DNA from: Candidatus Omnitrophota bacterium
GTDB taxonomy: Bacteria > Omnitrophota > Gorgyraeia > Duberdicusellales > 4484-171
Direction of reading: 5' to 3'
Assembly: GCA_043815445.1 (NCBI GenBank)
Contig: JBDRIY010000058.1
Location: forward strand, 16,403-80,402
DNA length: 64,000 nucleotides
A program made the position numbers and the translations under genes. This document shows, piece after piece, positions 5,923 through 26,100 of the stretch; position 1 is the stretch's first letter, and each line of letters begins with the position of its first letter. The notes beneath the pieces are model-generated. The model had not been told where the DNA came from and did not search any database. It saw nothing but the letters and a program-made list of their open reading frames with translations.

Positions 5923-5947
5923 TTTGGCGAAAAAGGAGGTAATTAAA

Positions 5948-6479: not shown

Positions 6480-6740
6480 GGCAAGAACATCGAAGCTTTT
6501 ACCCCCACTCGTCCCTCGTCCCTCGTCCTTCGTCCTTCGCACTCCATTCCCCCCTTCTCCCTTCTCCCTTCTCCCTCATTGCTAACTGTTAAATGATAAT
6601 TGATAATTGCTAATTGTTCCTTCCCCTCTTCTCCCTTCTCCTCACATCCCACATCCAACATCCCACGTCTTACATCTTCCCCCTTCTCCCCACTAGCACC
6701 CAGCACCCAATATCCAGTATCCAGAACAGAAGCGCCATCA
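6480..6740. repeat. C-rich low-complexity tract built of short tandem units (tcgtccc/t x4, cttctccc x3, gataattg-like x3, catccca-like x4, cacccag/cagtatccag).
   Basis: Direct reading of the sequence. The plus strand is almost T/A-stop free here. The minus strand would encode a Gly/Glu/Arg-rich tail. Confidence 0.8.
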
Positions 6741-6749
6741 TCAAAAGTA

Positions 6750-9700
6750 GAAGGAACACGAATACCCTTGTCAGTTTCTTCCGGCATTGACTCAAGCTGT
6801 TTAATAATTATATTGTGGATTTCCCACGAGTTCATATTCTTAAAGCCTGACCCTTCACCTTCTAAATTAGACTGCGCCTTATCTACTAAATCAGCATCTT
6901 GAAAACGCATATTAACTACCCTTAAAGCTTTTATTGCTTTTTCCTGGCCCATTTGAACCTCTACTTTCCAATCCTCTATAAAAGTTCTTAAAATATCTGT
7001 TGCTTTATAGCTCAAATGTTCAAATGTTTCATCTTTCTTCATTATGCTGCGCAGTTGAAATTCAATATTTAATAAGGCAATAATGTCTATCGGCCTACAC
7101 CCCTGAATGATTTCATCTTTCAAATCATTGATAACCTTTTCTATTACTGCAGGATTAATATTTACATCCAAGGCAAAAATCATATCCTCTATAATTATTA
7201 TCGCATTATTACCATCCGTATACACCTCTACCCCCGCCCCCGACGGCATATCTATTACTCCATCCTCCGCCCTAACATCTCCCGGCGTAGGCAAAATCCA
7301 AGCAACTGTACTTAGAATACCTTGTAATATTGACCCTTTATCTAACAAAGTAGTTTTCTCTTGCTTTTTACCCTGCTTTTCCAATTCTTCCTTATTAAGC
7401 CCGCCTTGCGTTTGCGCATCTACCTGTGAGATGTACATTAATCTATTATATTTATTATCACGATTATTTTTAAGATATTCAATTATCTCACCCCATAATA
7501 ATTCAAATTTTAACTTTACTATCGCAGTATCTGCTTCAGCAGTAATCCCAAAAACGCTAAATGCTCCCAAAAGTGAATTCCCGCGATACTTCTGTTGCGC
7601 GGCGATAACCGTTGGGTAACTCAGAGATTTAGGAAATCCCGCGTATTCCTTGTACCATGAGAATAAACCCTCTTTTTTGAAATCCTGCATAAACCGCGTG
7701 GCAAAGTTCAACTCATTTACCTTATCCTCCATAGTTACAGCACCATGATCTATTACCGGGAGATATTGACTTAATTCATGGGTTAAAACTAAAGCAATTT
7801 GCCCATCCGGCTTATCCTTATATTCAGAGTTCATCTTCACTACCAAAAGCCCTTCTTCTGCTTCTACTACCACAGGCAAACAACTGCCGTCTCCTGCCTC
7901 TGAATCTATCCAGCCGCCGGCCCTTAATATTCCACTGTATTTAGCTAAAGAAGTGTCGTGGTAACCAAGAATTACTGCTACATAATTTACCGCCCAAACT
8001 AATTTATGATTATTTTCATTCTCAGCAGATACCATGCTAACTTTATGATTTATCTCCAAATCATCCGACACCCCATTGCGATTAATATCGCGATAGCGTA
8101 ACTGCATAAGATCATTAGGCATATAAAGACGGTCTAAGGAAAGGGACTCCTCTGCTTTCCTTCCTATCTGCTGCCAGGTTGCTCTTTGACTTATACTTTC
8201 ATCAAGAATAGGCCAGAGATATTTCTGGGATTCAATTGATAATTGATTAGTTCCCAAAAGCTGCACATTAGGCCAAGCGCTTGTCAACAGCACTGCGTAA
8301 TGGTTTAAACTTGAACATGAACCTACGATATAGATTTTTGCAGGGTAGTTATCATTAGGTAAATTAGTAAAGGTTTGATACAGATTGATTCCTATACCTG
8401 AATGGCCATCATATAAAATTCTATGGATATTAGGATCTCTGGCGAATTGGGCTATTTCATTGCTATCGTCTTTTGAAAATAGAGAAATAAATACACTCTC
8501 ATCTACACCGCCAATAACACCTCTATAGATACCTTCTTCACTCTCTTTAAACCCGTATCTTTCTGAAATACCTGCCGTAAAAGAATCCAAAAATTCGCTA
8601 TCATAAAAATAGGCTTTAGTTCCCACTCTGTTTAATTGTCCTCCCTGAGCTTGTGCCCATTCTTCATAAGGAGGCGCTATAGGGAGAGAGGCTAACTGCC
8701 ACAAATCTTTATCTATAACTTCATCGAATCGATACATATCTGGGTCTTGAGACTGACGGGATATTGCCTTAAATACACTGGCTATATGATAAAAGGTTTT
8801 TATAGAATTTAGGGTAGCACCTTCAGCTATCGCTCTCTCTCTTGCCTCTATATATTGAGGAAACATCAAAGATAATCCTTTAGGCGTAACATTCAATAAC
8901 TCTATGCTCAAGGAGCTAATCTCATCTAAACAAAGCGGGCCGAGAATAGAACTTTCATCCACCCTGACCCATTCCCCTAAAAGCCTCTTATCTATTTGAC
9001 TCAGTTTGCCCCGCATCTCAAAATAGCTCTTCACAATACCGCTTAATCTCGTCAACCCCTCCGTCGCATTCAGCTCTTCTGAGTTTATATTAGGCTTACT
9101 ACTAACACAAATGGTTCTTCCTTCTACAGTAACCCAAGGAGATATTTCCCCCGCCCAAGCACAAGGAATTAAATTACTGAAGAAATTCTTTATGCGGGTA
9201 GAAAATATTTTGTCTTCTTTCGGCGGGTCCTTATTATTAAGTTGTATTTTTTCTTCTTTCAATGGCTGTCTCGGACTAAACAAACTAATATCGCCTTCAG
9301 GTTGAGGTAAAATTAAAGACGCAGGCTCTGACTTTCCAGCTTTAGACTGAGACTGTCTAGTACTTATCTCAGGAATCCGCGTAGATTTAGGTAATGGTTT
9401 CGAAGCATCTCCACCTGTATTCTTTAGCAAATTCTTCATTTCGCCAACGCTTAACGCCTGCTTCCAATTATTATTTTGATTACGCAGAATGGGCATACTT
9501 GGAGAATAAGGCACAAATGGCCTAGTTGGAGTATAACCGGAACTAGGAGCTGCTGAAGCATTGCCTCCTGAAAGCATAAAGAACAACCCAATTCCGAAAG
9601 TGAGGACAACAACTACAAAGACCGGGCCATACTTATATGTATAATAACCAAAACTTTTTTTAACCTCGGGTAAATATTTCCTTACAGCAGCAATTGTTTC

Positions 9701-10816
9701 TTTTTCTATCTCAACTTTCTCATTTTCAAACTTAAATTCCTTCCACACATTCTCGGTTATCTTTTCATAAAGACTGTTAATCAATTCCTTTAATTGTTTG
9801 TCAATAGATTCTTTAGATAAATTGTTGCTGTCGTGGAATATTGTGAGAAGTACTATATTTGTTAAGTTATCTTCTGTAAACTCGCTTTCTAAAGTATCTT
9901 CTATAACCTCGCGTGATAAGGACACCCCTATTTCTTTCTCAATTTCTTCCATCTTCTCCAAAGATAAGTATTGTGACGTCTGAGAAAGTTCTTTAATTCT
10001 TTCATTTACCCTTCCGGCAAACTCTTTTTTAATCTGATTATCTTCCAAGTTATAGTTAACGGATGTTGTAACAGCTTCTCTTATAATAGAATAAAGAAGT
10101 TCTATCTTCTCTGGCGCGGTTAATTCGTAATTTTTCCTATTGACTGCTCTTAAGTACTTATTTATTACAAAATCAAATAGATAATCCGCGTTGGATGGTA
10201 TATTGCATTTTCCTTTCGGATTTGTTTTAAATTCAAAGTTTTCCCTCCATACAGCAATTTTCTCCAATTGTTCCTTAAACTCTTTTACTGACTCTTCAAG
10301 GTAATTCAAGCTGCATTTCAAGCGCGAATCTTCACTGCGCTCACTTAGCTTCTTTTTTATCATTTCTAAGGCCGCGTTTAACAAGTCAAACGCGTCTCTT
10401 GTAGAGCTCGTATCTCCCAAAGCGCATATTTCTTTTATACGTTCATCTTCCAATTTATCTCTTATATCTTGTATGTCTCCCTCTTCTATTTCTATAACGC
10501 CAAGAATTTTCATTATTTGTTCATATGTCTTGCCAACATATTCAAAAGCATTGGTTACAGTTTTATTTTCTCCGATTCCATCATAAAACTTCTCCACAAC
10601 ATCTACAGCATGGCCAAAATTATCAATCCCCTTACTTCCTCTCCGTATAATAAACACTGTCGAAACAACCACTGCAATTGCTGCCGCGATAAGATAACCT
10701 GCAGCTACCGCTACCCACCACTGTGCTGAAGTCAAATATAAAAATGTGCTTGAAGCTAAAGTATCTCCTGCAAAAGCAAATCCAACTTTACTAAAGAAAA
10801 CAGCTGCCCCCGCCAT
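6750..10816 (-). CDS. Large membrane-anchored protein. It has N-terminal TM helices, a long helical region, a second TM segment, and a C-terminal alpha/beta region with a His...Cys pair (ILYDGHSG ... IYIVGSCSS), possibly a caspase/CHAT-like protease fold. The 3' end is approximate.
   Basis: ATG at 10816 (phase 2). The two other frames at the start hit stops within 30 codons. Phase 2 was verified open, and the other phases closed, at 6841-6900 and 7021-7080. There is no in-frame stop before the C-rich repeat tract, so the end is not fixed. Confidence 0.45.
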
Positions 10817-11039
10817 AACCGATAGCAAAGCAAACTTTGACTTTCTCAACAAATTCCGCCCCCAATTGCCACCCCATCTTAAAAATAGTGAAAATAGGGA
10901 CACATCCCCTTTTTCGTTTACCACCGCGCTACTTGTCTTCGCGAGAGCCACAGGAAAAACAGAGGAATTTTGAATAAAGTGACGAAGCTGTACGAGGATT
11001 CTTGATTCTCGTAAAATAGAAACATCCCTACACAAATCC

Positions 11040-11068
11040 TTGACATGATTTTTAAGAAATGGTATAGA
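11040..11068 (+). promoter_or_regulatory. Sigma-70-type promoter TTGACA-17 nt-TATAGA for the subtype-B antitoxin.
   Basis: TTGACA 11040-11045, 17-nt spacer, TATAGA 11063-11068, RBS GGGGAGG 11081-11087. A nearly identical block is at 30102-30130. Confidence 0.5.
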
Positions 11069-11092
11069 TAAGCCGTCATAGGGGAGGTGTTT

Positions 11093-11338
11093 ATGACTAA
11101 AATTACGATTGATCTTAAACCAGAGCAAATCAAAGAAGCTTTTCAAAAACTTACTATTCAAGAAAAACTTCGCCTTACCCGAGAAGTTGAAAGGCTTACC
11201 CGGCGTTTCCGCTGGGATAGTCTCATTACTAAAGTCAGAGCCCGCGCTAAAAAATATCCCCTTGCCCAAAAAGAAATAAATCAAATATGTAAAGAAACTC
11301 GTAAAGAACTTTATGAAAAAAGAGCTAACTGCCGCTAA
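11093..11338 (+). CDS. Antitoxin-like small protein, subtype B (copy B1). It is an orphan: no PIN gene follows.
   Basis: MTKITIDLKPEQIKEAFQKLTIQEKLRLTREVERLTRRFRWDSLITKVRARAKKYPLAQKEINQICKETRKELYEKRANCR. It is about 85 percent identical by eye to 30191-30439. The track called the GTG at 11087. The ATG at 11093 is better placed relative to the RBS. Confidence 0.7.
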   Translation: MTKITIDLKPEQIKEAFQKLTIQEKLRLTREVERLTRRFRWDSLITKVRARAKKYPLAQKEINQICKETRKELYEKRANCR

Positions 11339-11462
11339 CAACCCAACGAGCTCGAGGTGGAAAAAAGAACCAGAAAAATTAGAAAAGTGCTTAATAAAAA
11401 ACTTATTCTTGACAAGATAGAACATTTTGTAGATAATAATAAAGCAAAATAAGGAGGAAATT

Positions 11463-11864
11463 ATGGAAGAAAAGAAAATTGCAAAGTTATTAGAAAAAAT
11501 GAATGGTAATATTATCGAGTTGAATAATAAATTTACTGGATTAGATAACAAGGTTACTGGATTAGAAGAAGGACAAAAAGAACTTAAGGCAGGCCAATTA
11601 AGAATAGAAACTAGGCTGGGGAAAGTTGAAATCAGGCTGAAAAAGGTTGAAGATAAATTAGAAGCTACTTTTGTCCGGACAGGCAAAAATTTCGAAGAAA
11701 TTACCCAAATTAAAACCCAGTTAGAAAGCCTTGAAATAATTAAAAAAGACATACTAACTATTAAACATACCCTTAGAAAAAAGGCTGATTTAGAAGAACT
11801 ACAATCCTTAGAAAACCGCATGGCAATAGCAGAAAGACGATTAGCAAAATTCATCCACCATTGA
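11463..11864 (+). CDS. Coiled-coil protein (133 aa), function unknown.
   Basis: RBS AAGGAGG at 11452-11458. The sequence is heptad-rich (LEKMNGNIIELNNKFTGLDNKVTGLEEGQKELKAGQLRIETRLGKVEIRLKKVEDKLE...). Confidence 0.55.
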   Translation: MEEKKIAKLLEKMNGNIIELNNKFTGLDNKVTGLEEGQKELKAGQLRIETRLGKVEIRLKKVEDKLEATFVRTGKNFEEITQIKTQLESLEIIKKDILTIKHTLRKKADLEELQSLENRMAIAERRLAKFIHH

Positions 11865-12055
11865 CCTATCACGGGTTTTTCACCTTGAGGCGCATCTTGG
11901 AATTTTGCTCTATCTTCCTTCCAAATATGAAAAGAAAAATACCAATCCCCCTCTTCAAAGCCCAGCTTTTTAAAAACAACATTATTTAAGCGCCTTTTAA
12001 ATTCTCCTTGATTTCTCAATAAAGATATGTTATCTTTTGTATGAGGTGAATTATA

Positions 12056-12277
12056 ATGACTAAACTGGTTTCCGCTATTTACGAGCATGGGAATCTTAGG
12101 CTTATTAAACCGCTGAAACTGTCTGAACACCAGAAGGTGCTTATTGCTATTGCTGTTAGCAACGATGAGATACCTTCTATGCTCATCAGCAAACTCGCTG
12201 AGAAGTCGAAAAGTTTCCATTTCTTGACCAACCCTGAAGAAGATATTTATTCCCCCTCTGACGGAGAAAAAGTCTAA
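12056..12277 (+). CDS. DUF104-type (AbrB/SpoVT-like fold) antitoxin.
   Basis: MTKLVSAIYEHGNLRLIKPLKLSEHQKVLIAIAV. This matches the 'AIYENGVLKPLEPLxLxEG' signature of the DUF104 antitoxin family. A MazF gene follows 5 nt downstream. Confidence 0.6.
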   Translation: MTKLVSAIYEHGNLRLIKPLKLSEHQKVLIAIAVSNDEIPSMLISKLAEKSKSFHFLTNPEEDIYSPSDGEKV

Positions 12278-12281
12278 CTTT

Positions 12282-12629
12282 ATGAGCCTTAAACGCGGGG
12301 ATATCGTTCTTGTGCCTTTTCCTTTTACAGACTTAACCAGCACAAAGGTTCGTCCGGCAGTTATTATTTCAGCTGACCCCCAAAAAGAAGATATAGTTAT
12401 AGCCTTTATTTCCTCAGTAATTTCCAAGCCTGCCGGTAACACAGAATTTTTACTTACTTTAACCAATCCGGATTTTGCCTCTACCGGCCTTAAAAAAGAC
12501 TCTATATTTAAAATGGGTAAAGTTCTTACTCTTTCAACCGTCCTCATCCTAAGGCGCCTTGGACGCATATCTGCCAACATCCAAAAAGAATTAGACAATC
12601 TGCTCAAGAAAGCGCTGGAACTCACATAA
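12282..12629 (+). CDS. mazF: MazF/PemK-family endoribonuclease toxin.
   Basis: MSLKRGDIVLVPFPFTDLTSTKVRPAVIIS... This is the canonical RGDIVLVDFPFTDxSxxKxRPALVLS N-terminus of PemK/MazF. Confidence 0.8.
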   Translation: MSLKRGDIVLVPFPFTDLTSTKVRPAVIISADPQKEDIVIAFISSVISKPAGNTEFLLTLTNPDFASTGLKKDSIFKMGKVLTLSTVLILRRLGRISANIQKELDNLLKKALELT

Positions 12630-12649
12630 TTTACTATTCCCTGATTTTC

Positions 12650-13480
12650 CTTAGAAAAATAATACTCTTTTTTCACCGGCAAATTGATAGGATTTTCTTT
12701 CGTTTGAACAGAGGCCTGAGCAATAGCGGGGTTATCTTGGTTTGTGCCAATGGGTGAGCTGGGAATACTCGATCCTAGATACTCGATGCTCGATGCTCGT
12801 AAAATAAAAACATCCTTTTTTCCTTGCGGCGGTGAGGCTCCGCTATGTCTGTATCTATCTTCATCTTCAAAAGCAAACTTTTCAAAAACAACATTATTCA
12901 AAAATCTCTCTGCCTTTCCCTCAACTAAACTTTGTTTTGATACAAGTATGCCGGAGCTAGATTTTGTTTTAGAATTAACCTCCACCTTGTCATTCCCTCT
13001 ACCCGGCTCCTGCATTATAATAGCCAATTTTGCGTTGTTGAATTCAAAGCCATAGACGCTGTCTGGATATGATACAAGGAACTCTTCTTTTTCTACTTTA
13101 ATCTTTTGTATATCTTTACCATCCTTATCAGCTAAATAAGCTGTGAATGAACCTTGCCGGCAAAGAGAAATTTCCATTCTACCCTTTCCGTCTTTTATAT
13201 GCTTATGAGCGCTTTCTTTTCCCTTGGCTGTTTTTATACCTACTCCTATACCAGCGCTCCTTGGCGTAATCATTGCCATTTTTGAAGGCGAATACATACT
13301 GGATCTATGAATTACAGCCATTAAATTGCCTTTATCATCTCTATCATACTCAGGATAAGCCTCCAACCCCTCAAACCCCTGAGCTATCTTATCGTATATT
13401 TCAAGAAGAACCGGAGAGCTGGAATGACTGCGGCCGGTTTGAGTTGAATCTTTACTCTTTAGATAGGCTTTCTTGACAAA
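12650..13480 (-). CDS. Hypothetical protein. Minus-strand coding is supported by T-rich plus-strand composition and a protein-like translation. The boundaries are approximate.
   Basis: Reverse-complement translation ...MAVIHRSSMYSPSKMAMITPRSAGIGVGIKTAKGKESAHKHIKDGKGRMEISLCRQGSFTAYLADKDGKDIQKIKVEKEEFLVSYPDSVYGFEFNNAKLAIIMQEPGRGNDKVEVNSK... The two plus-strand track ORFs here (12744-13055, 13273-13476) look like shadows. The ORF ends with a PxxxKKEYYFS tail like the one at 6393-6410. Confidence 0.3.
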
Positions 13481-13558
13481 ATTACCTATACGTGGTAATG
13501 TTATTTTTATAATAACCTTTGAATTATTGTAAACAATAAAAATAATATAGAGGTATAA

Positions 13559-13828
13559 GTGCGGTTTCAAAGATACGAATAGGATGATGCAAATATAGAG
13601 CATATTAGCAGTCATAAAGTCATCCCACAGGAAATAGAAGAAGCTAATTTCAACGAACCTCTTGTAATGAGAGTAAGGGGTAATAGATATATTGTTTATG
13701 GACGTAGTGATAGTGGACGTTATATTTTTATTGTGACTATTCATAAAGGACAAGGGGTTGTGCGCGCTATTGCCGCCCGTGATATGACACAAGCTGAGCG
13801 CAGGCTTTATAATAAAAAGCGAGGTTAA
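13559..13828 (+). pseudogene. brnT: BrnT-family (DUF497) toxin interrupted by an in-frame amber codon (TAG 13580-13582).
   Basis: The translation (GTG start) is VRFQRYE*DDANIEHISSHKVIPQEIEEANFNEPLVMRVRGNRYIVYGRSDSGRYIFIVTIHKGQGVVRAIAARDMTQAERRLYNKKRG. This resembles BrnT (xRFEWDxxK...HGVSFEEA...). The stop falls about where the conserved Trp is, consistent with TGG to TAG. BrnA follows 3 nt downstream. Confidence 0.55.
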
Positions 13829-13831
13829 TCT

Positions 13832-14110
13832 ATGCCCAAAAAGATCCCCAAATTCAGGAGTGAATCCGAGGAAGCTAACTTTTGGGCCACCCATGATAGT
13901 ACTCCATTCTTGAAAGATATGAAGGAAGTCTCCAATATCCGGTTTCCTAAACCAAAGCATAAATCGCTTATCCTTGACCTTGAACAACCATATATAGAAG
14001 CCATCAAAAAGATTGCTAAAAAGAAACATATCCCCTATCACAATCTTATAGAAAGATGGATTAAAGAAAAAGCCCTCCCTAAAATGGCCGCTTCTACTAA
14101 TCTCGAATAA
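13832..14110 (+). CDS. brnA: BrnA-family antitoxin (ribbon-helix-helix).
   Basis: MPKKIPKFRSESEEANFWATHDSTPFLKDMKEVSNIRFPKPKHKSLILDLEQPYIEAIKKIAKKKHIPYHNLIERWIKEKA matches the BrnA signature (IPxFxSExEExEFWxTHDSTDY...). Confidence 0.75.
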   Translation: MPKKIPKFRSESEEANFWATHDSTPFLKDMKEVSNIRFPKPKHKSLILDLEQPYIEAIKKIAKKKHIPYHNLIERWIKEKALPKMAASTNLE

Positions 14111-14323
14111 CTTTTTCGAAACCAATTTTACGGCAGACAAATATTGCGTATAATCAAACAAATAAAAATCATTGTTATTTTTAATACAACTACGAAATCC
14201 TTCAAAACTCATATTATTAATGGATGAACTGTTCTCGTGAGAAAAGGTGTCTGTCCCCTTTTTTAAATAATTATCTTGATTTTCATTAGATGTATCTCTT
14301 TTTTTACGTCCCCTAATCTCTCC

Positions 14324-14352
14324 TTGACTCAATAACACTTGTATGTTATAGT
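14324..14352 (+). promoter_or_regulatory. Sigma-70-type promoter TTGACT-17 nt-TATAGT for antitoxin copy A2.
   Basis: TTGACT 14324-14329, 17-nt spacer, TATAGT 14347-14352, RBS AAGGAG at 14366-14371. The ATG is at 14378. Confidence 0.5.
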
Positions 14353-14377
14353 TTTTTTGTATAAGAAAGGAGAAAGA

Positions 14378-14629
14378 ATGTCTAATAAAATCACTTTGGA
14401 ATTGAATCCTAATCAAGTAAAATCTTTGGTAGAAAAACTTTCTATTCAAGAAAAAATACGCCTTTTGAAAAAACTCGAACAAGAAACTTGGGCAAAAAGA
14501 ATAGATAACGTAACCACAAAAATAAAAAAGAAATTTAAACAATACCCTCTGCCCAATAAAGAAATTACCCGTATTTGTAAAGAAACCCGCCAAAAAATCT
14601 ATAATGAAAGAACTAAAAGTCGTCATTGA
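14378..14629 (+). CDS. Antitoxin-like small protein, subtype A (copy A2).
   Basis: MSNKITLELNPNQVKSLVEKLSIQEKIRLLKKLEQETWAKRIDNVTTKIKKKFKQYPLPNKEITRICKETRQKIYNERTKSRH. It overlaps the PIN start by 26 nt. Confidence 0.75.
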   Translation: MSNKITLELNPNQVKSLVEKLSIQEKIRLLKKLEQETWAKRIDNVTTKIKKKFKQYPLPNKEITRICKETRQKIYNERTKSRH

Positions 14630-15017
14630 TTCTAACATTTTAGTAAGCATACTAAAGGGAAGCGTTTCTCTGTCAATAATATATACCGCTTTTAAAGAAA
14701 ACTCATTTAAACTAATCATAAGCGCTGAAATTCTAAAAGAATTAGCGTCTGTTTTATACCGTCCCCACTTAAAAATTAATCCTTCTGATATAAAAGAACT
14801 CTTCAGATTAATAAAAAATAAATCTATTCGCGTAAAATTGCCCACGCCATTCATCAACGCTTGCCGTGACCCTAAAGATAATTTTATATTAGAACTAGCT
14901 ATAACCGCCCAAGCGAGATTTATTATAACCGGCGATAAAGATTTACTTACTCTTTCTCCATTTAAAGGAATCTCTATCCTATCCGCTAAAGAATTTATCG
15001 CTTTCTTAAAAAAATAA
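14604..15017 (+). CDS. PIN-domain ribonuclease toxin (137 aa).
   Basis: MKELKVVIDSNILVSILKG...ITGDKDLL. This has the PIN-family conserved acidic residues and is full length. It is a paralog of 30411-30833. Confidence 0.8.
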   Translation: MKELKVVIDSNILVSILKGSVSLSIIYTAFKENSFKLIISAEILKELASVLYRPHLKINPSDIKELFRLIKNKSIRVKLPTPFINACRDPKDNFILELAITAQARFIITGDKDLLTLSPFKGISILSAKEFIAFLKK

Positions 15018-15020
15018 CCC

Positions 15021-18000
15021 TCCGGAGAACTTCTCACATCTCCAATCTCCAAGAACAAAACACTTAATTGTTGGCTTTTTACCTGAATTTTTTCAATTAG
15101 GTGTTCTGTCCCCTTAATTATCCCCTTAATTATCCCCTTAATTACAGAAAACAGAAGCTTCCCCTTTTCTACTCCGCCTGCTTCTACGGCAGATGAATAG
15201 ATAGCATTAGAATGCCTATTTTTCTGCGCCAAAAAATACTTTCCTCCGTTCTCACTAACAACATTTATATATGGACAAGTTAATGGTTTACTTAAATCTA
15301 TCAAATAAAAATCCTTTTTTGTTGAACTGCTAGGCTTTACAAGTTCTCCACTAACCGCAGAACTCTGCGCCAATAAAGATGTCAATGAAAACATGAAACC
15401 ATCTATATCCTTAATTACACACCTCTTGTCTAAATAATCTCTTATAGCGTAGTAAAAAAACGAAGATAAATTTCCTCCTTCAACAGCGGGCTTGCCGGTA
15501 ATGCTCTTTATAAACCGGCAAAGATAATTAAACTCTTGTTTTTGAACTTGGCCAAATCTTGAAACGAGATCGACAAAATTAAAAGTTCCAGAAAGTTTAA
15601 GCACATCTACAGGATTATCATTTATGTACCTATCCAAAGATTGCCCTTTCTCTTCTAATGATTTCATAATACTAATTCCAGGAAATAAAAATACTGAATG
15701 GATAGGAACCAAATCAGGAATAGAAACTCTTGCTTGATTTTTTAAATCATCTTTTCCCCACCACAAAACTTTAGATTTTTCTAAACGTTTCACTTTGCTA
15801 AAATACGGCCGAGCCACCTTACCATCCGGAAACGGCATATCTTTACATAAAATATCTTCCATTATCAAAAATTGCGTTTCCGCAGTAAGAGAAACTATTC
15901 CCTTTTGAACACCTGAAGCAATGAAACCATACAAATCTTTATGAATCCTCAAAATCAATTCCCTATCTTGAACAGTTGCCTTTAAAACTAAATAATGACT
16001 ACTTTGCTCAAACCTAATAATTGCTGAAGACCCTGCCCCACCCGACACCTGAACTTTTATCGGTTTTGCTTCTCCAACACAAGAAGGAAACTGCTGATTA
16101 CCTTTCTTAATCAAATCTTGTTTATCTTCCAATATTTTCTTTAAAATTGGCTCAATCTTTAATACAACAAGATTGACAAGACGTTCTTCATAATCTCTTG
16201 TAAGAGAAATATCTCTGCTGGATATGAGGAATATGCAGTTCATACTAATATCTGGGAAATTATTAAAATCTATCGGGCTGGATTTTAGGAAAGATATTAG
16301 CGCTCTCGTCATATTGACAGTATGTTCATTGAAAATGCGAGTGGTTAAGGAAAAATGTATAATTATCCACTGATATTTCTTTTGCTTCGCCCATGATTTA
16401 TAGATTCCATAAGATAACGTGCTTAATTCACTAAACAAACCAAGGCCGATCATAGCCTGGTACGGATTTACTAAAGGCGTAAATTTTCCTGCCGCGGCAA
16501 ATTTAGCGTAATTACGGCCGGTTGGTTTTATCTCTTTGTCCGTAAACTTATCTATTAAATCCGCAATACTCCAATTATTATTTCGCAAAATCCGCACGAT
16601 ACTCCCCTCTTCTATCTTTACAATGCTTCGAAAACATCCCATAAAAAGAACATCATCGTCTAAAACAATATTCAAACGCCGCGTTAAATCCTTAATCTGT
16701 TCAAAAGCGAAAGCCGCTTTACTTCTTTTAAAATAACTGATTGCTGTCTGGTTGAGATCACATCCAAATAAATAGTATCTTTTTCTAACATCTTCAATGA
16801 ATTCATCTACTGCCTTAAAAGCTATAATAACATCCGTATAACTCGCGTTAAAAGAAAGATACTTTGCCAATTTCTTATGCCATTTAATAATATTCAGCTG
16901 GCCGGAATATAACTCTCTTAAAAATAACTCCCTGTATTGTTCAAAAACATTAGCTTTGCCGTTTACTTGTTTAATTACTTTAAGTCTACGGCCTCCCCCT
17001 AACCATGCCCCTGCCTCTTGCTGCAAAACATACTCACATCTAGCAAAATATTCTTTTAATATACGGCGTACGCGCTGTCTTGAAAGGTTCCATTTTTTAG
17101 CAAGATCCTCCGGCGCTTTTCCTTTAATAAACCAGGCAAAAAATATTTTTTTATTCCTGATTATTTTCTCACCGCTATGACTAATTGTTTTAGATAAATG
17201 ACTGTTTAAAATCATTTTTATTCTTTTCTTTTCTTTAATAGTATATTCTTTCTCTATAAAGGCTGGCGCGGATTTTTCATAAAGATTACCTCCACTATTC
17301 TTTATGCAATTAGCATATATAAATTCTATGTTCTCTTCTTCATGCAAATTTTCCGGCGAATATTTTTCGATCCTCTTAACATACCGAATACAGGAGTTTC
17401 TAATCGCTTGTAAAAAATAATTTCTCACTTTAGCATTATATTGTCTATTTTTCTCTTCATCAAATAACTCGATGGCTCTAACTAACCCTCCTCTTCCGAT
17501 ATTATTACCATAAGTTCCTATTTGTATTAAATCATTTAGCTGAAGATTTAACCGGCGATTTTTACGAAGAATCCGCCGGGCCGTATTTTTTACTAAATAC
17601 GCGTTCATTATAAGCAATGTTTCTCTTGCTTCTAAACTGCCTTTTTGAACTAATCTAAGCAACTCTAAATTCTCTTCTTCTGTGAGCGCCCTTGGTAGCG
17701 ATATAACAGTTCGATCTATTACTTTAATATCCGGCAAAATTTCTTTTATTCCATTCCACCCCATATATTTTCCTACCCATGGCCCTTTACCTTTTTTAAA
17801 TGAAGCAATACCGGCTTTCTTAATAATCCTGCTCCACGGCCTTGATGCCCGGGCCCTTACCACCCAAGGATATCCTTCTCGTATCCACTGTGTTGAATTC
17901 CCCGGGTCAGTAATTCCGGGCGGTGGTTTTCTTAGTAAGGCAATAATTTGTTTTTGGGAATATTTTGCTCGTGAAGTACTCTGGGAAATTACCGGACTGC

Positions 18001-19456
18001 TTGAGGGTGGGGCCTGCTGGCGGCGGGATTCTGTGGATTGCTCTACTGTCCGGTATCCTGCATTTTGAGACTTTGCCATAAGCATTATTCTTTTTACTAT
18101 TGCTCTATTAGAAATATTTAAACTACGGGCTGTTGCTCTAAGATTATTTTTTTTCTGTTGATATATATCAAGAACATCTTGCCACAAATCAAATATGCTG
18201 ACTATTTTTTCACAGCTAAGCTTTATCTTAAACCAAACATAACATTTACTCTGTAAACCTTTTAACCCTTCGCTTTCCAGGATTTTCCCTACTTCTTCCC
18301 TGTTTATTTTCTTGTGTGGCGGTATTGTATAAATATTTACGGATTCCCCTTCGGTTTTAAGCTTTTCTTCGTTAATTTCGGGAAACACGCCTATAATACT
18401 CTCGATTATTTTTAAAGGTTTATCTTTATTAGACATATTCAATTTCAATATTTTTGCTATCTCACGAAGTATATCCGCCCGTTGATACTCAAATAAAGCG
18501 TAAAATCTATACCCCTCGCAAATAACCGTAACAATCTTCTCCTTAATAAGAAAAGCGGCTTCCCTATAATGTATTCCATGGAATCTTTTTACTAACCCTG
18601 GAAGCCCTTTTATCCCATATATATTTATAAGTTCCTTTTTTATTTCTTCTGAAAAATTATTATCCCCCGGCGACAATGAGATATTAAGTTCTGTCCGCAA
18701 AGAATCAAAAACAGCGGATATGGGGGCCGCCAAATCACTTCTTAAAAAATTAAAGTAATGCAAAATTACTTGTTTATATTCTTTATTACCGAAAATTAAT
18801 TTATATATTCCGTCAAACATTTTTCCAAATTTATCCGGAAAACCAAGCCCGTTTATAGCCTGATACGGTTTTACCAAAGATGTTAGTTTACCCTTTGTTA
18901 TAAACTGCGTGTAATTTTTTCCATTAGCCTTTATTGTTCTCGTAGTGTTTTCCTCTATCAACAATGAGATATTCCAGCTATTTTTTTGTAAAAACTGCAA
19001 TATATCCTCTTTTGTTTTTCCTACAACATCCAAAAGACATCCTTCAAAATAACTATTATCATCTAAGCCAATATTTAACTGTTTAATCAATCTTTTTACG
19101 CGGTCATAGGTTGTTCTTCTGTTATCAGTTCTAAAATAACTAACCCCTATATATACTAACCTGCCTCCAAGCATATAATAACGCTTTCTAAAATCATTGC
19201 TAAATTCATCTTCCATCCTAAAAGCTCTAACCATATCCGCGTCCGTTGCCCTTGCCGGCCAATACTGGGCTAATTTTTTTCGCCATTGGCCAATATCCAA
19301 TTTCCCTGTACGCGTTTCCTTTAAAATCCGCTCTCTGTAGTATACAAAAACACTGCATTGAAAGAGCTCAGCCGATACCTCTCTATCATTATTAAGGCTT
19401 ATACAACGCCAAACTTTTTTGTCCATACTCTCAATACAACCAATTATTACTTGCAT
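15021..19456 (-). CDS. Giant protein (~1470 aa) with two copies of a ~260-aa domain flanking an embedded sigma-70-like module (region 2 and region 4 HTH).
   Basis: ATG at 19456 (phase 2). I verified by reverse complement that 17461-17640 encodes SLEARETLLIMNAYLVKNTARRILRKNRRLNLQLNDLIQIGTYGNNIGRGGLVRAIELFDEEKNRQYNAKVRNYFLQAIRNS. This is the sigma-70 region 2.1-2.4 pattern DLIQEGxxGLxxAxxKFDxxxGxxFSTYAxxWIRQAI. About 17040-17160 encodes IFFAWFIKGKAPEDLAKKWNLSRQRVRRILKEYFARCE, a region 4-like HTH. The duplicated flanking domains are W(R/H)KKLAxY...KRYY(M/L)(L/F)G...NNWSI(A/S)...GK(L/F)T(S/P)LV(K/N)PYQA(I/M)(N/I)GLG. The phase was checked at 15022 and 19454. The 3' end is approximate. Confidence 0.5.
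15111..15146. repeat. Perfect 3 x 12-nt tandem repeat (ccccttaattat).
   Basis: Direct reading. On the minus strand it encodes IKGIIKGIIKG inside the 3' end of the giant ORF. Confidence 0.7.
17040..17640 (-). other. Sigma-70-like segment (region 2 at ~17461-17640, region 4 at ~17040-17160) embedded in the giant ORF.
   Basis: See the parent feature. The motifs were verified codon by codon on the reverse complement. Confidence 0.6.
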
Positions 19457-19685
19457 TTCATTAAAGAAGCTGTTGTTAGAATCTGAAGGCGGCAAAGCCG
19501 GGCCGCTGCCGGAGATGTGGATTATAAAAATATATGGGGAGTTATTAAGATCTATCAGGCTGGATTTTGGGAAAACTAGAAACGTCTCCTTTTTTACCTC
19601 TCTTGCTTTTTTCAAGCTGAAATCAAGTTTATTGACACCTTCGCGGGAAAATGTTATATTTAAATTGTCCAAATAAGGAGGCTGT

Positions 19686-19913
19686 ATGTTAAGACATTTT
19701 AAAATAGTTATTGAAGAGGAGCCTTTAGGAGGCTTTTCCGTACATGTTCCATCGCTTTCTGGTTGTGCTACCCAAGGTGAAACACTAAAAGAAGCAATAT
19801 CTAACGCCGAAGAAGCTATCAAGCTGTATCTTTGGTCATTACAAGATGATGGTATTTCTATACCCAAATCTGATATGCGGGTAGTATTGAAAGATATCGA
19901 AGTATCTGTATGA
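19686..19913 (+). CDS. hicB: HicB-family antitoxin (UPF0150).
   Basis: MLRHFKIVIEEEPLGGFSVHVPSLSGCATQGETLKEAISNAEEAIKLYL is the typical HicB N-terminal RNase H-like fold signature. It overlaps the HicA start by 4 nt. Confidence 0.75.
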   Translation: MLRHFKIVIEEEPLGGFSVHVPSLSGCATQGETLKEAISNAEEAIKLYLWSLQDDGISIPKSDMRVVLKDIEVSV

Positions 19914-20143
19914 CGAAACTGCCCCAAACTTCCGGAAAAGAAGCTATCCGTGCTCTCCAAAAAGCTGATTTCTTCATCAAGCGTCAAAGCGGTTCCCATG
20001 TAATAATGAGGCATTCCACCGACCTCACCCGGCGCTGTATTGTCCCTGTCCACGGTTCTAGAACTATAAAACCCGGCACCCTCCACTCTATCCTCAAAGG
20101 CGCCGCCATCTCCATAGAAGAATTCATCAGCCTGCTTAAATAA
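19910..20143 (+). CDS. hicA: HicA-family mRNA interferase toxin.
   Basis: SGKEAIRALQKADFFIKRQSGSHVIMRH...IVPVHGSRTIKPGTLHSILKGAAISIEEF is the canonical HicA/YcfA motif. Confidence 0.8.
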   Translation: MTKLPQTSGKEAIRALQKADFFIKRQSGSHVIMRHSTDLTRRCIVPVHGSRTIKPGTLHSILKGAAISIEEFISLLK

Positions 20144-20191
20144 AAGAATTTCATAAACTTCGGGCGTCTTTTCCTTCAACAAATTCGCAAT

Positions 20192-23100
20192 ACTAACAAG
20201 ATGTTCTTCATAACCTCTCTCATTCTCTAAAAAGAAAACCACAGGCGAACTTCTTAATCCCTTTATGCGAGATAAGAGTTTATTATAAGGTTCTATAGGA
20301 TCATGCGGTACACATGAATCTGGAGAAAGGCCTTGCCTTAATGTTTCATCAGTTAAGGCATCCCGTATAATATTAAACACTTCTTCTAATAGTACCTTTA
20401 GGAGATCACTCTCAATAACGGCCTTAATCTTACTATCTCTAACCAACATAGCAACTTGAAATGAATTTTGAATATAGCTATATACCTCCCATGTAAATTC
20501 ATCGATTTGATTAGAATACTTAGTCAGTTCGCATGACTTATCGCCTTTCTGCATTGTAACCGTAACGCCATATTCTCTATTAAACATTGTAACTAAATCA
20601 TACAATACTCCTAAGGGCCTCATATGAAGGTCATATGCTAAGTCAACTTCCCCTGTATATAAATTATTATTAGTATTTTTCTTAGGTAAGAACTCAATAT
20701 CTTCTTTCTTCACCGCACTACTACCCCCCTCAAACCCCTCTATTTCCCCGTCTAAGATCTTAACTCCCTTTTTGGTGATTAAGATGGTTCTTTCCTCCCG
20801 GACGCCGGCTATTAGCAGTTCTATGGTTATTACCATTCCTGGCTTGATTTCTTCTACTTTCTCTAAAGAATACTGATGGCCGGCAAGGCCGGTGCCGTGG
20901 CCCCAGGCTAAGAAGGAGATGTAATATTTAAGGTAAGGGCTGTATTTGGGGCTTGTTTCTAACATTCGCAGGGCTTTTTCTTTAGCGAGGTTAACTTGGC
21001 TATAGGTAACTGTTCCTTGTTTTCTTATTCCTTCCTCTATCGCCTCATAGCAGACACTAAAAAGAAATACTGACATCTCCCGCATAGTTTTATATTTTTG
21101 ATAAAGAGGGTATTTTTTATCAGTAGGCAGAGGTATTTTTCCTACCCACCACGATTCACTGCGGTCATCATTAAATCCGTTCTTTTTAGCGCCCCAGTCT
21201 GTAACAACAATATCTCCGCTTAAGTCTATTTCTGTATCATCCGGCTCACTTTCTGTAATACTTCTTATTTCCTGGCCTATTCTTTCTACTTTCCTATAAT
21301 CCGCGGCAGACAATTCTACTGCTTTGCCTATTCGATTATAAGAGCCTGTAATTTTCTCTTTTTCATCAACCAAACTCATAATCCGCTCAATGTCAGCGCC
21401 GTTTAAGATAGTAACAGGAGACTCTCCGTCTTCAAAGCTTACGCATCCAGCGCCTTTAGCCGCGGCTAATTCCAAAGAAATATCTTTTATCTGACGTTTA
21501 GTTATTTTACTCCCGGGCTTTTTAGCCATATCTTCAACTATTTGCTGAGTCTTTTCTCCGGCTAATTTTCTTATATTCCCAACCTCTTCTATGCCTTTAA
21601 TTGTTTCTTGAGAGTTAACAACATCTTCTTCTTGCTTTTCAACAGATTCAGCTTTGTGCCTACCCCCAAACTCCTCCTGATACAAACGCTTAGCTTGATT
21701 TTGGAGGCTTCCTCCGGAAATTACTGTGTAACGCTGATAAATACGCCGGGTCATTGTTTTAATTGACATTCGACTCAAGCCGCGCCAACCCCACCAGCCC
21801 CTAAAAGGAGTAATTGCTGTTCCCATCATTGGAGATAACAGCCGCTCATAAAGGTTCTTGGACTGCCTTATGTTTTTATCTTTCTTAGCCAAACGCTTAA
21901 CCCAGGCTATACCAAAAACCTGAGCTGCTACTTCATTAAAATCATGGCCAGCCCCAATAGATAAGCTATTAACTCCTAATCTTTTAGCCAAGCAATCCAA
22001 AATAATATGGAAGTTCTCGTGAGGAGTATCAAACTGAACTAAAGTCTCGTCATCTATGCGATAAAACTTCTCGCCTTGATAATCCTCATTAACCCTGCGG
22101 CCGTCTTTATCTAAAGCTAAATGGTCGCGATAGCCGATATTAGCCGCGGAAATATAAATAATATATTTCCCCTCTTTCTCGCTGTATTCTACCTGCTCGC
22201 GGCCGTTATCCCATATTTCCGGCATAAGCCCGGGTAGAACAATTTCTACCCGGAATTTCATTTCATCTAATAAATCCTCTAATTTAACATTTTGGCTGCG
22301 GGCTTTTTGAGCAAGCTGGCCTAACATCCGCGGAACTAACAAATAATGTTTATTATCTTTATCAGCTATTTTCTTATCAGTGTATTGTTCACTTTCTTGC
22401 ATTACCTCCCCTAAAAACTCATAAACATCTTCCTTGCTTTTTAAGCTACTCTTAATACCCTCTAATTGCTTAAAAATATATCCCTCTAACTTTTGCTTTA
22501 TTTCCTTATTAAGCCAAGCTTGAGGATTTATAGACATAAGCAAAGACCCTATAGTTTGCTGAGCCCGGGCCGCAATCATCCGCGGCCTGTCTTTTAACTT
22601 TTTCCAAGAAGGATCATCTTTATTAACTGTCTGGCGCATAGAAATACTCTTAACGGTTTGGTCAAAAAGAGGCAGAATTTTATTTTTAAGTTTATCTACC
22701 ACAGCCTCAATTTCTTCTATTTTTACCTCACACTGTTGAGGTGTTGCCCAATCCTGCCAAACATCATCTGTTTTCAAAGCTTCAGCTTTATCAATCATTT
22801 CTTCTATTAAATAGCGGTAGGCGTCCATTTTAATCATAAAATCATCGCCATAAACAGCCTCAATATCAAACATCCTCTGCTTTAAACAAGCTAAAAGCGA
22901 AGAAATCTTATACTCAGGAACAAGGTGTTCCTGTTCTAAAGGAGTAACCTCATAAGAAATTTCTCCCTTATCAAGTTGTTTAATCCGCGCCTCCATTCGT
23001 AAACCTATTGGCTCAGCCTCGTTGTTATCCCCAGAACTATAAGCATTCTCAAAAAAGTCCGTATGCGCGACTTTTTTAGAAGCATACCTTTTCTTAGCCT

Positions 23101-26100
23101 CTTTAAATAATTTCTTCTTCTCTTTTTTGCTTAACATTTTAGCCTGAGGCTGGCTTATAGGCTTTTCCCGGCCAAAATTAATTCGCGGGTATTTTAAAAG
23201 ATATCCTTTAGTATATATATAAGGTAAGGAAGTTAAATTCATCTTCTTAGCTTTTTTGCCGTTACGCCGCTCATATTCAACGCTGACAATATAGTCAAAA
23301 ATGCCAAAACGCCGCTTCTTCCTAAAAGTAAGCTTGCGGTCGTCACAAGGCAAAGGAACTTCAAAAGTATTGCCTTGTTTAAAATCTATTTTTATCTGCT
23401 TACCTTCCGGAGTCATCATCCAGAGATTATGCTCTTTATCATAATAAATATCAGCCAGCCGGCTTTGTTCTTTTTTCTCATTTTTCTGCTTTTCAGTATC
23501 AGCTACCATCCAATATTTTATCGGGCTGATCTTTTGAACTGCTTGCGCCGACTGCATAGCGATATTAATAGAAACCCTTTTTCCGGAAACTACTTCAGGA
23601 AAATCCTCAGGAGAAAGCCTTTCTAAATGAGCAATAAACCATTCCGGATCTAAACAATCATCAAATCCGCCCTGTTTCTCTGACCTATTTCCCAAAAATT
23701 CAAATTCTTTCATTGCGCTTACCTGGCGTTTTAAATTTAAAACTGTCTGGCGCCAATGCTCAATACTTTGATTTCCCGTGCCTAAATTCAATAAATTAAT
23801 ACCTTTACGCTGACTGGCTATCTGACTAACAGCATTATCCTGATCAAAAATATACTCTAACTGCCTCAGCATATTTTCAATTAAAGTAACTAAAACCTTA
23901 GCCGGCCTTTCTTTACCGCAGGCAGTAAAAATAGCCGACATCACCTCATTTTGTTTTTCTAAAGCCTGTTTAATTTCCTGAATTTTATCTAAATCTTTTC
24001 CCTTGAGCTCCCATTGCCTGATGATTGCGTTTAAAATATTAACCGGCCGGTTCCATACTGAAAAATTCAACTCGCTCCAGTTATTATTCTGACTCAACCG
24101 CTTTTGGCGATATTGAGCGTTGTTAATTATCTCATCTATGGTAGTAGGAATTATTTTTTCCTCGCCAAAACCTTCACCAGTAAGAATCAGCTTGCTAATT
24201 CTCCTTAAATTACGAAGGCGGTGAAGTGCCTGTTTTAAATCTCTGGTAGGAGTATATTTGTTGAATAAAAACACTGCTTCAATTCCCTCCTGGCCTAACA
24301 TTGTCTGGTCTGTTCCGCTATTTGCTCCCCGAGAGTCATAAGCTAAAACCCGCTGGCCTTGGCTTAAGCGCTTAAGAATCTGTTCCTGGGCTTCTGTTTC
24401 CGGAGACCTGGCTTTCTTAAAGAACCAACCGCTATAAGGCTTGATTAATTTTGGACTGCCAACTAATTCTTCTCTTTCTACCTTCTGACAAGTAACAACT
24501 CCTTGGGGCTCAAAAGTATAAAGCCAGCCATCATCAATAATCTTGGCTAAAACTTTCTTAGTATATAAAACATCATCTTGTTTTTTCCTTCCTGGCCGGC
24601 CGTCAATAATTACTTTAGCTTCTCCCAGTTCATAGCTTAAATACTCCAAACTGTCTAAAGCTGTGATTGGCTTGCCTGCTAACATTTCTCTTAAATCCTG
24701 ATTTTCACCCTGAAGTTCAATGTTAAACTGTTTTTTCCGGAATTCTAATTCTTCCTCTACTACATTAAGAGAAAGTAAAATCAGCTTGCGGGCCTGCTGG
24801 CTGTAATACTGAAGAACCTGGGTAGAAGCAACACTATCAGTGCTTTTCAAACTAGAAGGAATCTTAGCGATAATAGCGTAACCTAAAGAATAAACTACGC
24901 TGACAAAGCCCCTTCTAAACCTGCTCCAATCCTTACAAGAATAATTCAGAGCTCTCATAGATGTAATTAACTCTGAAGATAAAGCATGCTTATAACTTTT
25001 AGATACTACGTTATTTCCGGTTCCGTCATTAAGCCTTAACTCAAAATCTCTTTTCTTATTGTCTAAGGTATATCCTTGATAATGGCTGTTTTGATAAACA
25101 TAAACTTTCAGGGCAATAAGAAAATCAGCTAATTTTTTCTGCTGTTTTTCGTCAAAAATACTTAGTAACTGCTGGCTGAAAATATTTTTTTCTCTGGCCG
25201 CGGCTGTCTCCAGCTCATCAGCCCGAGAATGAGGCTGAGCTCCAAACCGGCTGGAATGAATCTTGAAAAAATCCCAGGCAAAATCAATAATTACTCCTCG
25301 GGGAATTTCTAAATTAGAGACATTTCCCTCAGCTTTATCTAAAGCGTCTTCAATCCATTTTTTATCCATTTGAGAATGAATATACCAGAGCATTTTATAC
25401 ATCTTATACCCTTCAATAGACGAAGAGCCTTTTACTTTAGCTTTCCACCAAAGGTTATACCAAGGAGTCTTGCGCCCGGTAGCTAAAGGAGGCGCGGATA
25501 TAGCGTCGGTTCCTTCATCCCAAATAAGCAAAGCTGGAAGCGTATCAATATTTCCGCAAACAGCATCAAAACACTGGCGCAGTTCATCCTGGTCAAGAAT
25601 CTTCAAACCGCTTATCTGAGGAAAAGCGGTTATAAGCCGGATAAACTTCTGTTTAGCCACATTATCCTTAACCACAACCCCCATATCTGAAGGAGCCAAT
25701 CCTGCCCGAGCGCTAATCCAATCCGCCATTAACACCGAAGTTGTAGATTTTCCAATCCCTCCTTCAGCAATAAGCGTCTGGATATTGGCCCTGCCGCTAT
25801 CTATAGCCGCGAATAAATTCTCATAAAATTCCTCTTGTTTTTTAGTATTATCGGCCTTACGCCGGGAAATCAACCCCATCTGCGCGGCCCGGCTCACTCG
25901 TCTGCTTGCTTCTTCACCAAATTCTTCCTTGCTAAAATCAGGAGGGATATTGTGAGAGGCCTTGAAGTTATTGAGAAAAGATTGCGAAGAACTGTTAAAA
26001 CTATAACTATTTAAAAAGCCGCGGCAAATAACTAAAATAACTATTATAAAAACAGTAAGCCAAAATATCTGGTCAAATAACCCTAACCCCCCTGGCGGCC

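Follow-up and report, generated by a model that had tools for sequence, protein, structure and literature searches.

How does a sigma-70-like sequence come to lie in the middle of a very long reading frame, and what could it do there? The question is raised by a stretch of 64,000 nucleotides (nt), hereafter the window, from a Candidatus Omnitrophota bacterium (contig JBDRIY010000058.1, positions 16,403 to 80,402 of the forward strand). A preliminary description of this DNA placed sigma-70 regions 2 and 4 inside a protein of ~1470 amino acids (aa), between two copies of an unrelated domain that was thought to recall, vaguely, intein or homing-endonuclease inserts. The computational analysis described here leads to a different picture of the host protein. 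The window is filled by a giant open reading frame (ORF) like those of other Omnitrophota, which probably holds a conserved, sigma-70-derived regulatory module related to the RNA polymerase machinery.

A single reading frame spans the window

What was taken for a ~1470-aa protein is part of a single giant ORF spanning the whole window. When stop codons were counted per frame, the minus-strand frame read from base 64000 contained no TAA, TAG or TGA across 21,333 codons, and the remaining five frames contained 878–2438 stops each. At 4.1% stops per codon, the lowest density among the other frames, the chance of such a stop-free run would be ~e^-890. The slice from 19456 to 15021 on the minus strand (1478 codons) is open, as had been described, but has no stop at either end, nor does one occur in the 1.5 kb before it or the 300 nt after it; the methionine at 19456 is an internal residue of the giant ORF. 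Because the same frame is open through the entire window, the limits assigned to the 1478-codon ORF are wrong, and the host is not a repeat protein of that size. A listing of ORFs of at least 150 aa, which excludes those running off the ends, had returned one ORF in the window. A stand-alone sigma gene was rejected, there being no stop in this frame anywhere in the window.

The coding signal follows the same frame. A codon-usage score, for which the Pfam-supported portions of the giant frame served as training set, favoured that frame in 205 of 212 segments of 600 nt, and the seven exceptions fall on or near plus-strand ORFs, most of which have a Pfam family. Scans of the window for tRNA, tmRNA and Rfam families gave no match.

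That mis-assembly or an unusual genetic code has created the open frame as an artefact, concealing an ordinary stand-alone sigma gene, is hardly credible. It would fit such an artefact that the exact DNA is absent from genome and metagenome collections (45-nt searches) and that a word-indexed homologue search with the 1478-aa slice returned nothing at E ≤ 0.001. On the other hand, all three stop codons are missing in one frame only, and the plus-strand genes terminate with normal stops. Independent Omnitrophota contigs show the same embedding, and the stop avoidance at synonymous sites of antisense genes, described below, is not something that mis-assembly can produce.

The window contains a sigma-70-derived module

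The identification of sigma-70 sequence within this frame is borne out. The NCBIfam model TIGR02937 matches with E = 6.2e-13 (48.7 bits against a cutoff of 42.9), and because the alignment spans profile positions 1–157 of 165, regions 2 and 4 are both matched. A phmmer search of the PDB aligned RpoS (7vf9_F) across regions 1.2–2.4 with E = 2.5e-6, with region 4.2 aligned weakly, and the sigma regions are contiguous and uninterrupted in this alignment. No match to sigma region 3 was found in the window copy. Counted from the window edge, the module lies ~15,300 residues deep in the giant ORF, so the earlier remark that it is not free-standing holds. It sits inside a stretch of ~4,100 aa without hydrophobic segments, near cytoplasmic-type domains such as an M24 peptidase.

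Comparison with RpoS shows which parts of the module have been kept and which have changed. Region 2.2 (DLIQxG...GLxRAIELFD) is conserved in the window copy and carries an insertion, TYGNNIG. Region 2.3 reads QYNAKVRNYF in the window against KFSTYATWWI in RpoS, with Y replaced by K and W by N; the aromatic residues of the KFSTYAxWWI motif are absent here, and the corresponding sequence in P0122, one of the relatives introduced below, is KYKCKIKNYF. The sigma regions are preceded by a segment resembling the homing-endonuclease-associated HNH_repeat and by a second, family-specific motif (Table 1). Taken alone, the HNH_repeat-like segment of the window copy has no Pfam match.

The DNA that encodes this part of the module is compositionally distinct: G+C content (GC) is 0.45–0.50 at 17800–18100 against ~0.33 around it, and a plus-strand ORF of 128 aa (17682–18068) overlaps the patch. 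The patch gave no RNA family match; it probably reflects the Pro/Gly/Arg/Ala-rich coding sequence of the junction and repeat, and the ORF is likely spurious.

The module recurs in Omnitrophota

An exhaustive HMMER search of 1.84 billion proteins found 27 relatives. Nearly all are matched over the sigma module, and the closer ones also over ~120 residues upstream, which comprise a repeat (NPPxxIxDPxNSxxWxxxGY...FGSWxxAxxxAGIxP) and the motif KPxWxxKYxDWxxVxxIxPD. In relatives, the stretch immediately before sigma matches HNH_repeat (PF18780), with 37.4 bits for P0126 against a cutoff of 26 and 19–25 bits for others. P0126 also passes both Pfam sigma cutoffs, for regions 2 and 4. Every named relative belongs to Candidatus Omnitrophota, and one is annotated as "sigma-70 family RNA polymerase sigma factor, partial".

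The embedding recurs along with the module. Long ORFs of 2,000–4,900 aa contain it in P0121 (4042 aa), P0122 (4053 aa), P0123 (4552 aa), P0125, P0127 (4872 aa), P0128 and P0129, several of the embedding relatives with two modules per ORF, and shorter carriers of 350–520 aa are P0126, P0134, P0135 and P0137. A related-locus search of genomes with a four-row alignment returned a single locus, L004, from an Omnitrophota metagenome-assembled genome (MAG), whose ~31% identical module is embedded in an ORF truncated by the contig start and at least 2,701 aa long; the same search of metagenomes returned none. In total, the module recurs in at least 10 Omnitrophota ORFs. As read from the sequences, it is located between hydrophobic segments in P0124, P0125, P0134 and P0135.

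To place the window copy in this family, a hidden Markov model (HMM) was built from 16 relatives with the window row left out. It matched aa 15340–15656 of the giant frame with E = 2.1e-74 and 236 bits, and no other copy in the window. All family-invariant residues are kept in the window copy (W84, A134, G174, G181 and R184 in window-sequence numbering), and an insertion of 5–9 residues in region 2.2 is a trait of the family. The family profile also matches primary sigma factors (E = 1.7e-18); when used to search a word-indexed database, it retrieved canonical sigma factors only and no family members. Most relatives keep KFSTYA in region 2.3, where the alignment consensus is KFSTYAxxxI. Its loss is common to the window copy and P0122 only. 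P0122 is the closest relative, and the sharing of the altered region 2.3 at 35% identity speaks for a change that is old and retained rather than for recent decay.

P0122 (MFH1505233.1, Candidatus Omnitrophota) is unusual in itself. Its 4053 aa span its entire contig of 12,160 base pairs, and ~22 residues at its start (PAKSNIESGRLFIDPRLGY...) recur at its end, as would be expected of a circular contig or one closed on a repeat. An antisense PIN cassette is read through in P0122 too, and the window shares that segment.

These data bear directly on an explanation in which the sigma sequence is a relic, that is, a sigma gene that was engulfed in frame by the growing giant ORF and now serves as stop-free filler without any sigma-related function. 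Such a reading would account for the residues lost from region 2.3 relative to RpoS, for the low Pfam scores of regions 2 and 4, and for the modest scores of most enzyme islands elsewhere in the frame. Furthermore, the giant frame also runs through the antisense of toxin–antitoxin genes, so not all of it need be functional protein. Against this stand the score of the leave-one-out profile (E = 2e-74 when rounded), the retention of every family-invariant residue, the sharing of the altered region 2.3 with P0122, and the recurrence of the module, sometimes twice per ORF, in at least 10 Omnitrophota ORFs. We therefore regard the relic explanation as rather unlikely.

The flanking domains are predicted to be helical and are conserved as protein

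The domain that flanks the sigma module, termed KRYY, is duplicated as had been proposed: copies 1 and 2 share 39.6% identity across 202 aa (self-BLASTP, E = 2e-48), and a weaker, partial third copy lies elsewhere in the giant ORF (Table 1). The flanks are also conserved as protein. Relatives were found in P0130 (E = 6e-11) and P0133 (E = 4e-8), both distant and both with the domain tandemly repeated; P0130 matches window positions 16484–16867, within copy 2. KRYY has no Pfam family. An AlphaFold2 (AF2) model is all helix, with a predicted local distance difference test score (pLDDT) of 61 overall and ~70–85 over residues 12–150, and comparison of the model with PDB folds gave no match (best E = 1.1). 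The first half of the domain gave the impression of a likeness to the helix-turn-helix of sigma region 4, which no tool confirmed.

A different origin had been suggested for these flanks, in which a sigma gene within a ~1470-aa protein is interrupted or flanked by intein- or homing-endonuclease-like selfish inserts. The HNH_repeat-like segment ahead of sigma in the family would be in keeping with this suggestion. However, Pfam searches for Hint, LAGLIDADG, HNH and GIY-YIG domains found none at E ≤ 0.01 in a 3,333-aa segment and none at the permissive thresholds of E ≤ 1 and E ≤ 0.1 in the flank pieces, and the all-helical KRYY model matched no endonuclease fold. Nor does any endonuclease catalytic domain appear among the Pfam matches beside the HNH_repeat or HNH_repeat-like segments. 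The sigma regions are contiguous, which makes it unnecessary to excise the flanks to restore a sigma frame, and the ORF is not 1470 aa long. Selfish inserts are thus a very improbable explanation of this locus.

Short junction motifs delimit modules

The sigma module and its neighbours are arranged in units separated by short, recurrent motifs. The giant frame contains 20 instances of the pattern SS[PA][VILAM], most of them SSPV or SSPI, compared with 3.1 ± 1.9 in shuffles, a ~6-fold enrichment. All 20 occurrences lie beyond aa 14,400 of the giant ORF, that is, below window position 20,722 (160–20722, minus strand). Within the slice, junctions were located at aa 14730, ~14815 (a variant with P changed to L), 15334, 15907 and 15991. 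The unit between aa 15334 and 15907 (window 16282–18001) contains, in order, the HNH_repeat-like segment, sigma and KRYY copy 2; the preceding unit, aa ~14815–15334, contains KRYY copy 1. Two of the junctions are part of a 46-nt direct repeat whose copies are 87% identical and in frame (blastn self-comparison; Table 1). The serines at the junction sites are encoded by both AGY and TCN codons, an indication that the junctions are constrained as protein rather than as DNA.

Relatives carry enriched motifs of their own. RRSASG occurs 12 times in P0123 and 10 times in P0127, with 0 expected in each; [GSA][AGS]SP[ALV] occurs 8 times in P0128 with 0.04 expected; and P0131 and P0122 each have 15 occurrences of their own variants of the junction motif, with 0.46 and 0.9 expected, respectively. 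GA[AG]SP.E and [SA]SPL are other variants. In three to four of five relatives, one of the motifs is found at or near the boundary of the sigma module.

The distribution of the SSP motif coincides with a change in the style of the giant ORF at ~20,700–20,800. At higher coordinates, earlier in the protein, the frame lacks the motif and contains large, diverged repeat families with "APPL" hydrophobic segments. At lower coordinates it is SSP-delimited, and most of the nested antisense genes are located there.

The giant frame resembles Omnitrophota multi-enzyme ORFs

Giant ORFs of this kind have been the subject of several papers (Nielsen & Lui 2026, bioRxiv 10.64898/2026.06.07.730766; West-Roberts et al. 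2023, bioRxiv 10.1101/2023.11.21.568195; Seymour et al. 2023, PMC10066038). Those of Omnitrophota are described in the literature as poorly understood, and the published proposals for their products include a role in predation and possible cleavage to smaller products. A giant class termed "multi-enzyme metabolic cluster" has been reported for the Omnitrophota class Gorgyraeia.

Pfam islands in the giant frame of the window include GH57 alpha-amylase/4-alpha-glucanotransferase domains, starch synthase (PF08323), alpha-amylase (PF00128), HD_5, two Radical_SAM domains, Peptidase_M24, Methyltransf_11 and GNAT. They are sparse along the frame, and the many distinct families (PF08323, PF04055, PF08241, HD, GNAT and others) include none that dominates. 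The scores of most islands are modest. In the islands checked, signature motifs are kept where they can be read: CxxxCxxC twice (radical SAM), HD...HHExxDGxGY (HD), GxGxG (methyltransferase), and DxxxNH and NHD (alpha-amylase). The ligands of the M24 peptidase look no more than plausible. Because their catalytic motifs are kept, the embedded enzymes look functional.

The starch-synthase island has its best homologues among Omnitrophota MAG proteins (48–56% identity), which in their own genomes are free-standing genes in ordinary contexts. Fusion of a whole gene was considered and rejected, since only the core, ~47–680 of the ~806–818 aa of the free-standing relatives, is embedded.

A Kyte–Doolittle scan of the giant frame gave ~45 candidate hydrophobic segments, roughly one per 470 aa. 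Six of the 45 are the antisense translation of plus-strand genes (PIN 30411–30833 and the coiled-coil ORF 11463–11864), and part of the helix counts published for giant ORFs could arise in the same way. More broadly, a "giant protein" may owe some of its sequence, predicted transmembrane helices among it, to other genes translated in antisense, which calls for caution.

Like the multi-enzyme giants of Omnitrophota, the window shows an ORF of more than 10,000 aa in which the same set of Pfam families is tiled sparsely; its at least 21,333 stop-free codons exceed the single ORF of at least 10,000 aa by which Omnitrophota giants are recognized. The density of hydrophobic segments is similar to that of class-1 giants, and the window shares with Omnitrophota giants the presence of internal, diverged repeats and nearest homologues within Omnitrophota. 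Unlike in those giants, neither end of the ORF, where a signal peptide, C39/S8 peptidase and SecA-like domains would be judged, falls within the window. By its Pfam set and hydrophobic density, the ORF matches an Omnitrophota multi-enzyme giant. The best enzyme homologues and every named relative of the sigma module belong to Candidatus Omnitrophota, which is strong indirect evidence that the ORF is encoded in a genome of this group.

The repeats add a structural detail. Every DNA repeat within the window is direct, and the frame is preserved in all except one short repeat (50 nt). At 34430–46340 on the minus strand, three to four diverged copies of a ~250–400-aa unit with hydrophobic segments are arranged directly and in frame, with 46–60% amino-acid and 68–79% nucleotide identity.

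Genes on the opposite strand avoid stops in the giant frame

Several intact plus-strand genes are nested inside the stop-free minus frame, with Pfam E-values down to 2e-21 (Table 1). Shuffling of the synonymous codons of nine nested genes gave an expectation of 1.2–5.8 stops each in the giant frame, compared with 0 observed, for a joint P of ~1e-18; this value is approximate, as the codons were drawn from the giant frame's own usage. All nine genes lie in the two plus frames that permit synonymous avoidance, and none in the third, where avoidance is hardest. Nested genes in the codon-aligned frame contain no TTA, CTA or TCA codon. The nested toxin–antitoxin operons, by avoiding stops in the giant frame, provide direct sequence evidence of selection for frame continuity.

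A model for the embedded sigma module

Based on these observations, a simple model would suggest that the giant ORF is translated straight through the sigma region and that the module serves as a conserved, RNA polymerase-binding regulatory element of giant polypeptides. It might act while tethered to a membrane-associated giant polypeptide or, by analogy to pro-sigma factors, after proteolytic release. The idea of a tethered or sequestered sigma, raised in the preliminary description, stays alive because several relatives have the module between hydrophobic segments.

What the window copy itself may do can be narrowed further. Canonical sigma factors use the aromatic residues of region 2.3 for recognition and melting of the -10 element. 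The window copy, with the core-binding helix of region 2.2 and the helix-turn-helix of region 4 kept, may instead attach to core RNA polymerase, sequester it, or attach to DNA. Because these parts are kept but the melting residues are missing, binding to core polymerase or DNA without standard promoter opening would be ranked above a classical sigma function.

Several points weigh against the model. Classical sigma activity of the window copy is doubtful, since region 2.3 lacks KFSTYA..W, as it does in P0122. Unlike TIGR02937, the separate Pfam models are below their cutoffs (Sigma70_r2, E = 0.009, 16 bits versus 24; Sigma70_r4, E = 0.03). For an AF2 model of the sigma module (pLDDT 63), the 50 best fold matches in the PDB are all sigma factors, but the model was built on an alignment of canonical sigma factors, and the fold match is partly circular. 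The nearest hydrophobic segments are more than 1,100 aa away from the module, making tethering less direct than in the relatives. The start and end of the giant ORF lie outside the window, and its length of at least 21,333 aa is a lower bound. Finally, release by cleavage at the junction motifs is a step that we purely infer.

An alternative role would be that of a delivered effector, in which a predatory or episymbiotic Omnitrophota bacterium releases the sigma-like module into or onto its prey to redirect or block the prey's RNA polymerase, in the manner of sigma-like factors encoded by phages. Predation and cleavage have both been proposed for giant proteins, the module is conserved across giants, and a modified -10 recognition region could mean a different target. 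Yet no feature seen here bears on secretion of the sigma segment, which is located in the ~4,100-aa stretch devoid of hydrophobic segments and among cytoplasmic-type neighbours. In addition, the one cultured relative is described as preying on archaea, whose RNA polymerase works without sigma factors. Delivery to prey appears improbable, and a regulatory module of the giant polypeptide remains the preferred interpretation.

This regulatory module has counterparts in known sigma factors. In common with sigma-70 groups 2–3 (RpoS and the SigE, SigK and SigF types), regions 1.2, 2.1–2.4 and 4.2 align. In contrast to these factors, the window module is embedded in a giant ORF, has the 5–9-residue insertion in region 2.2 and no region 3 match, adds an N-terminal HNH_repeat-like segment and the KPxWxxKYxDW motif, and is devoid of the region 2.3 aromatics. 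The relationship of the added segment to PF18780 is through the relatives, which match the family and to which the window segment aligns, whereas the window copy alone stays under every Pfam threshold.

In Bacillus sporulation, pro-sigma-E and pro-sigma-K are inactive, membrane-associated precursors that are activated by proteolysis, and their pro-sequences are short, in the range of tens of residues. The likeness is by analogy only: a sigma within a larger polypeptide, possibly cleaved free, where the extra sequence in the window amounts to thousands of residues. The NCBIfam models for SigE and SigK score comparatively well against the window module, which reflects general group 3 similarity, and no SpoIIGA-like or SpoIVFB-like protease was found.

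The giant ORF as such is of a type already described. Sigma modules, junction motifs and antisense-nested genes are absent from the main text of Nielsen & Lui 2026, West-Roberts 2023 and Seymour 2023, nor is the embedded HNH_repeat-plus-sigma module mentioned in the further paper to which a full-text search led; no paper was found that pairs the repeat name with "sigma". The recurrent, sigma-70-derived module implies that the giant polypeptide is linked to transcription.

The cleavage points of giant proteins are unknown (West-Roberts et al. 2023, bioRxiv 10.1101/2023.11.21.568195). The short, protein-constrained junction motifs that delimit modules may be processing or linker sites of giant proteins and could be the missing processing sites. 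A more far-reaching proposal is that the giant ORF encodes a true bacterial polyprotein: a chain of modules including a sigma-like, RNA polymerase-binding factor, with lineage-specific junctions (SSP[V/I] here; RRSASG or GA[AG]SP.E in relatives) as processing sites and with the frame kept open by selection even antisense through toxin–antitoxin operons. We consider this full version possible but speculative, and would sooner expect it to fail than to hold. If true, it would entail long-range dual coding on both strands, and the sigma module, lying so deep in the ORF, would be made only after ~15,000 codons had been translated.

Table 1. Features located in the window (positions in window coordinates; aa, residues of the giant ORF)
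Feature	Position	Strand	Basis or remark
Giant ORF	2..64000	-	21,333 codons without stop; continues past both window ends
HNH_repeat-like segment plus sigma-70 module	17033..17983	-	Family-profile match; sole copy in window
HNH_repeat-like (homing-endonuclease-associated-repeat-like) segment LRKPPPGITDPGNSTQW...SRIIKKAGIASF	17798..17956	-	Aligned to relatives matching PF18780
Family-specific motif KGPWVGKYMGWNGIKEILPD	17729..17788	-	Family consensus KPxWxxKYxDWxxVxxIxPD; W84 invariant, W91 nearly so
Sigma-70 regions 1.2 to 2.4	17372..17686	-	TIGR02937 and RpoS alignment; region 2.2 insertion, region 2.3 aromatic motif lost
Sigma-70 region 4 helix-turn-helix RNKKIFFAWFIKGKAPEDLAKKWNLSRQRVRRILKEYFARC	17036..17158	-	Reach of TIGR02937; Sigma70_r4 E = 0.03; second alignment domain of RpoS
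KRYY domain, copy 1	18755..19360 (aa 14881-15082)	-	Self-BLASTP; all-helical model
KRYY domain, copy 2	16352..16957 (aa 15682-15883)	-	Self-BLASTP
Partial third KRYY-like copy	49679..50044	-	Self-BLASTP E = 5e-7 and 2e-6; P0130 39% identity
Junction-like motif FPKSSLIDLNN	19541..19573	-	Upstream copy of 46-nt direct repeat (19529-19574)
Junction motif PPSSSPVIS	17984..18010	-	Directly ahead of sigma unit
Junction motif FLKSSPIDFNN	16259..16291	-	Downstream copy of 46-nt repeat (16247-16292); end of unit aa 15334-15907
Enzyme islands with kept catalytic motifs	57692-60595, 47867-48652, 40958-41566, 33278-34000, 4331-5086	-	
Antisense-derived "transmembrane" segments	30434-30808, 11423-11788	- (translation)	
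Antitoxin-plus-PIN bicistronic operons (three)	14339-15017, 30191-30833, 43796-44407	+	
CopG gene	13832-14110	+	
MazF/PemK gene	12282-12629	+	
Retropepsin-like gene	1250-1642	+	
Antitoxin-like ORF	5909-6190	+	No Pfam family; similar to 14339-14629
Coiled-coil ORF	11463-11864	+	No Pfam family

A further repeat involves the nested genes themselves. Positions 11083–11328 and 30178–30426 form a 249-nt direct repeat with 88% identity. One of the two makes up the 5' portion of the antitoxin gene that precedes PIN 30411, and the other has no adjoining PIN gene. The arrangement looks like a recent cassette duplication or gene conversion that left the giant frame intact.

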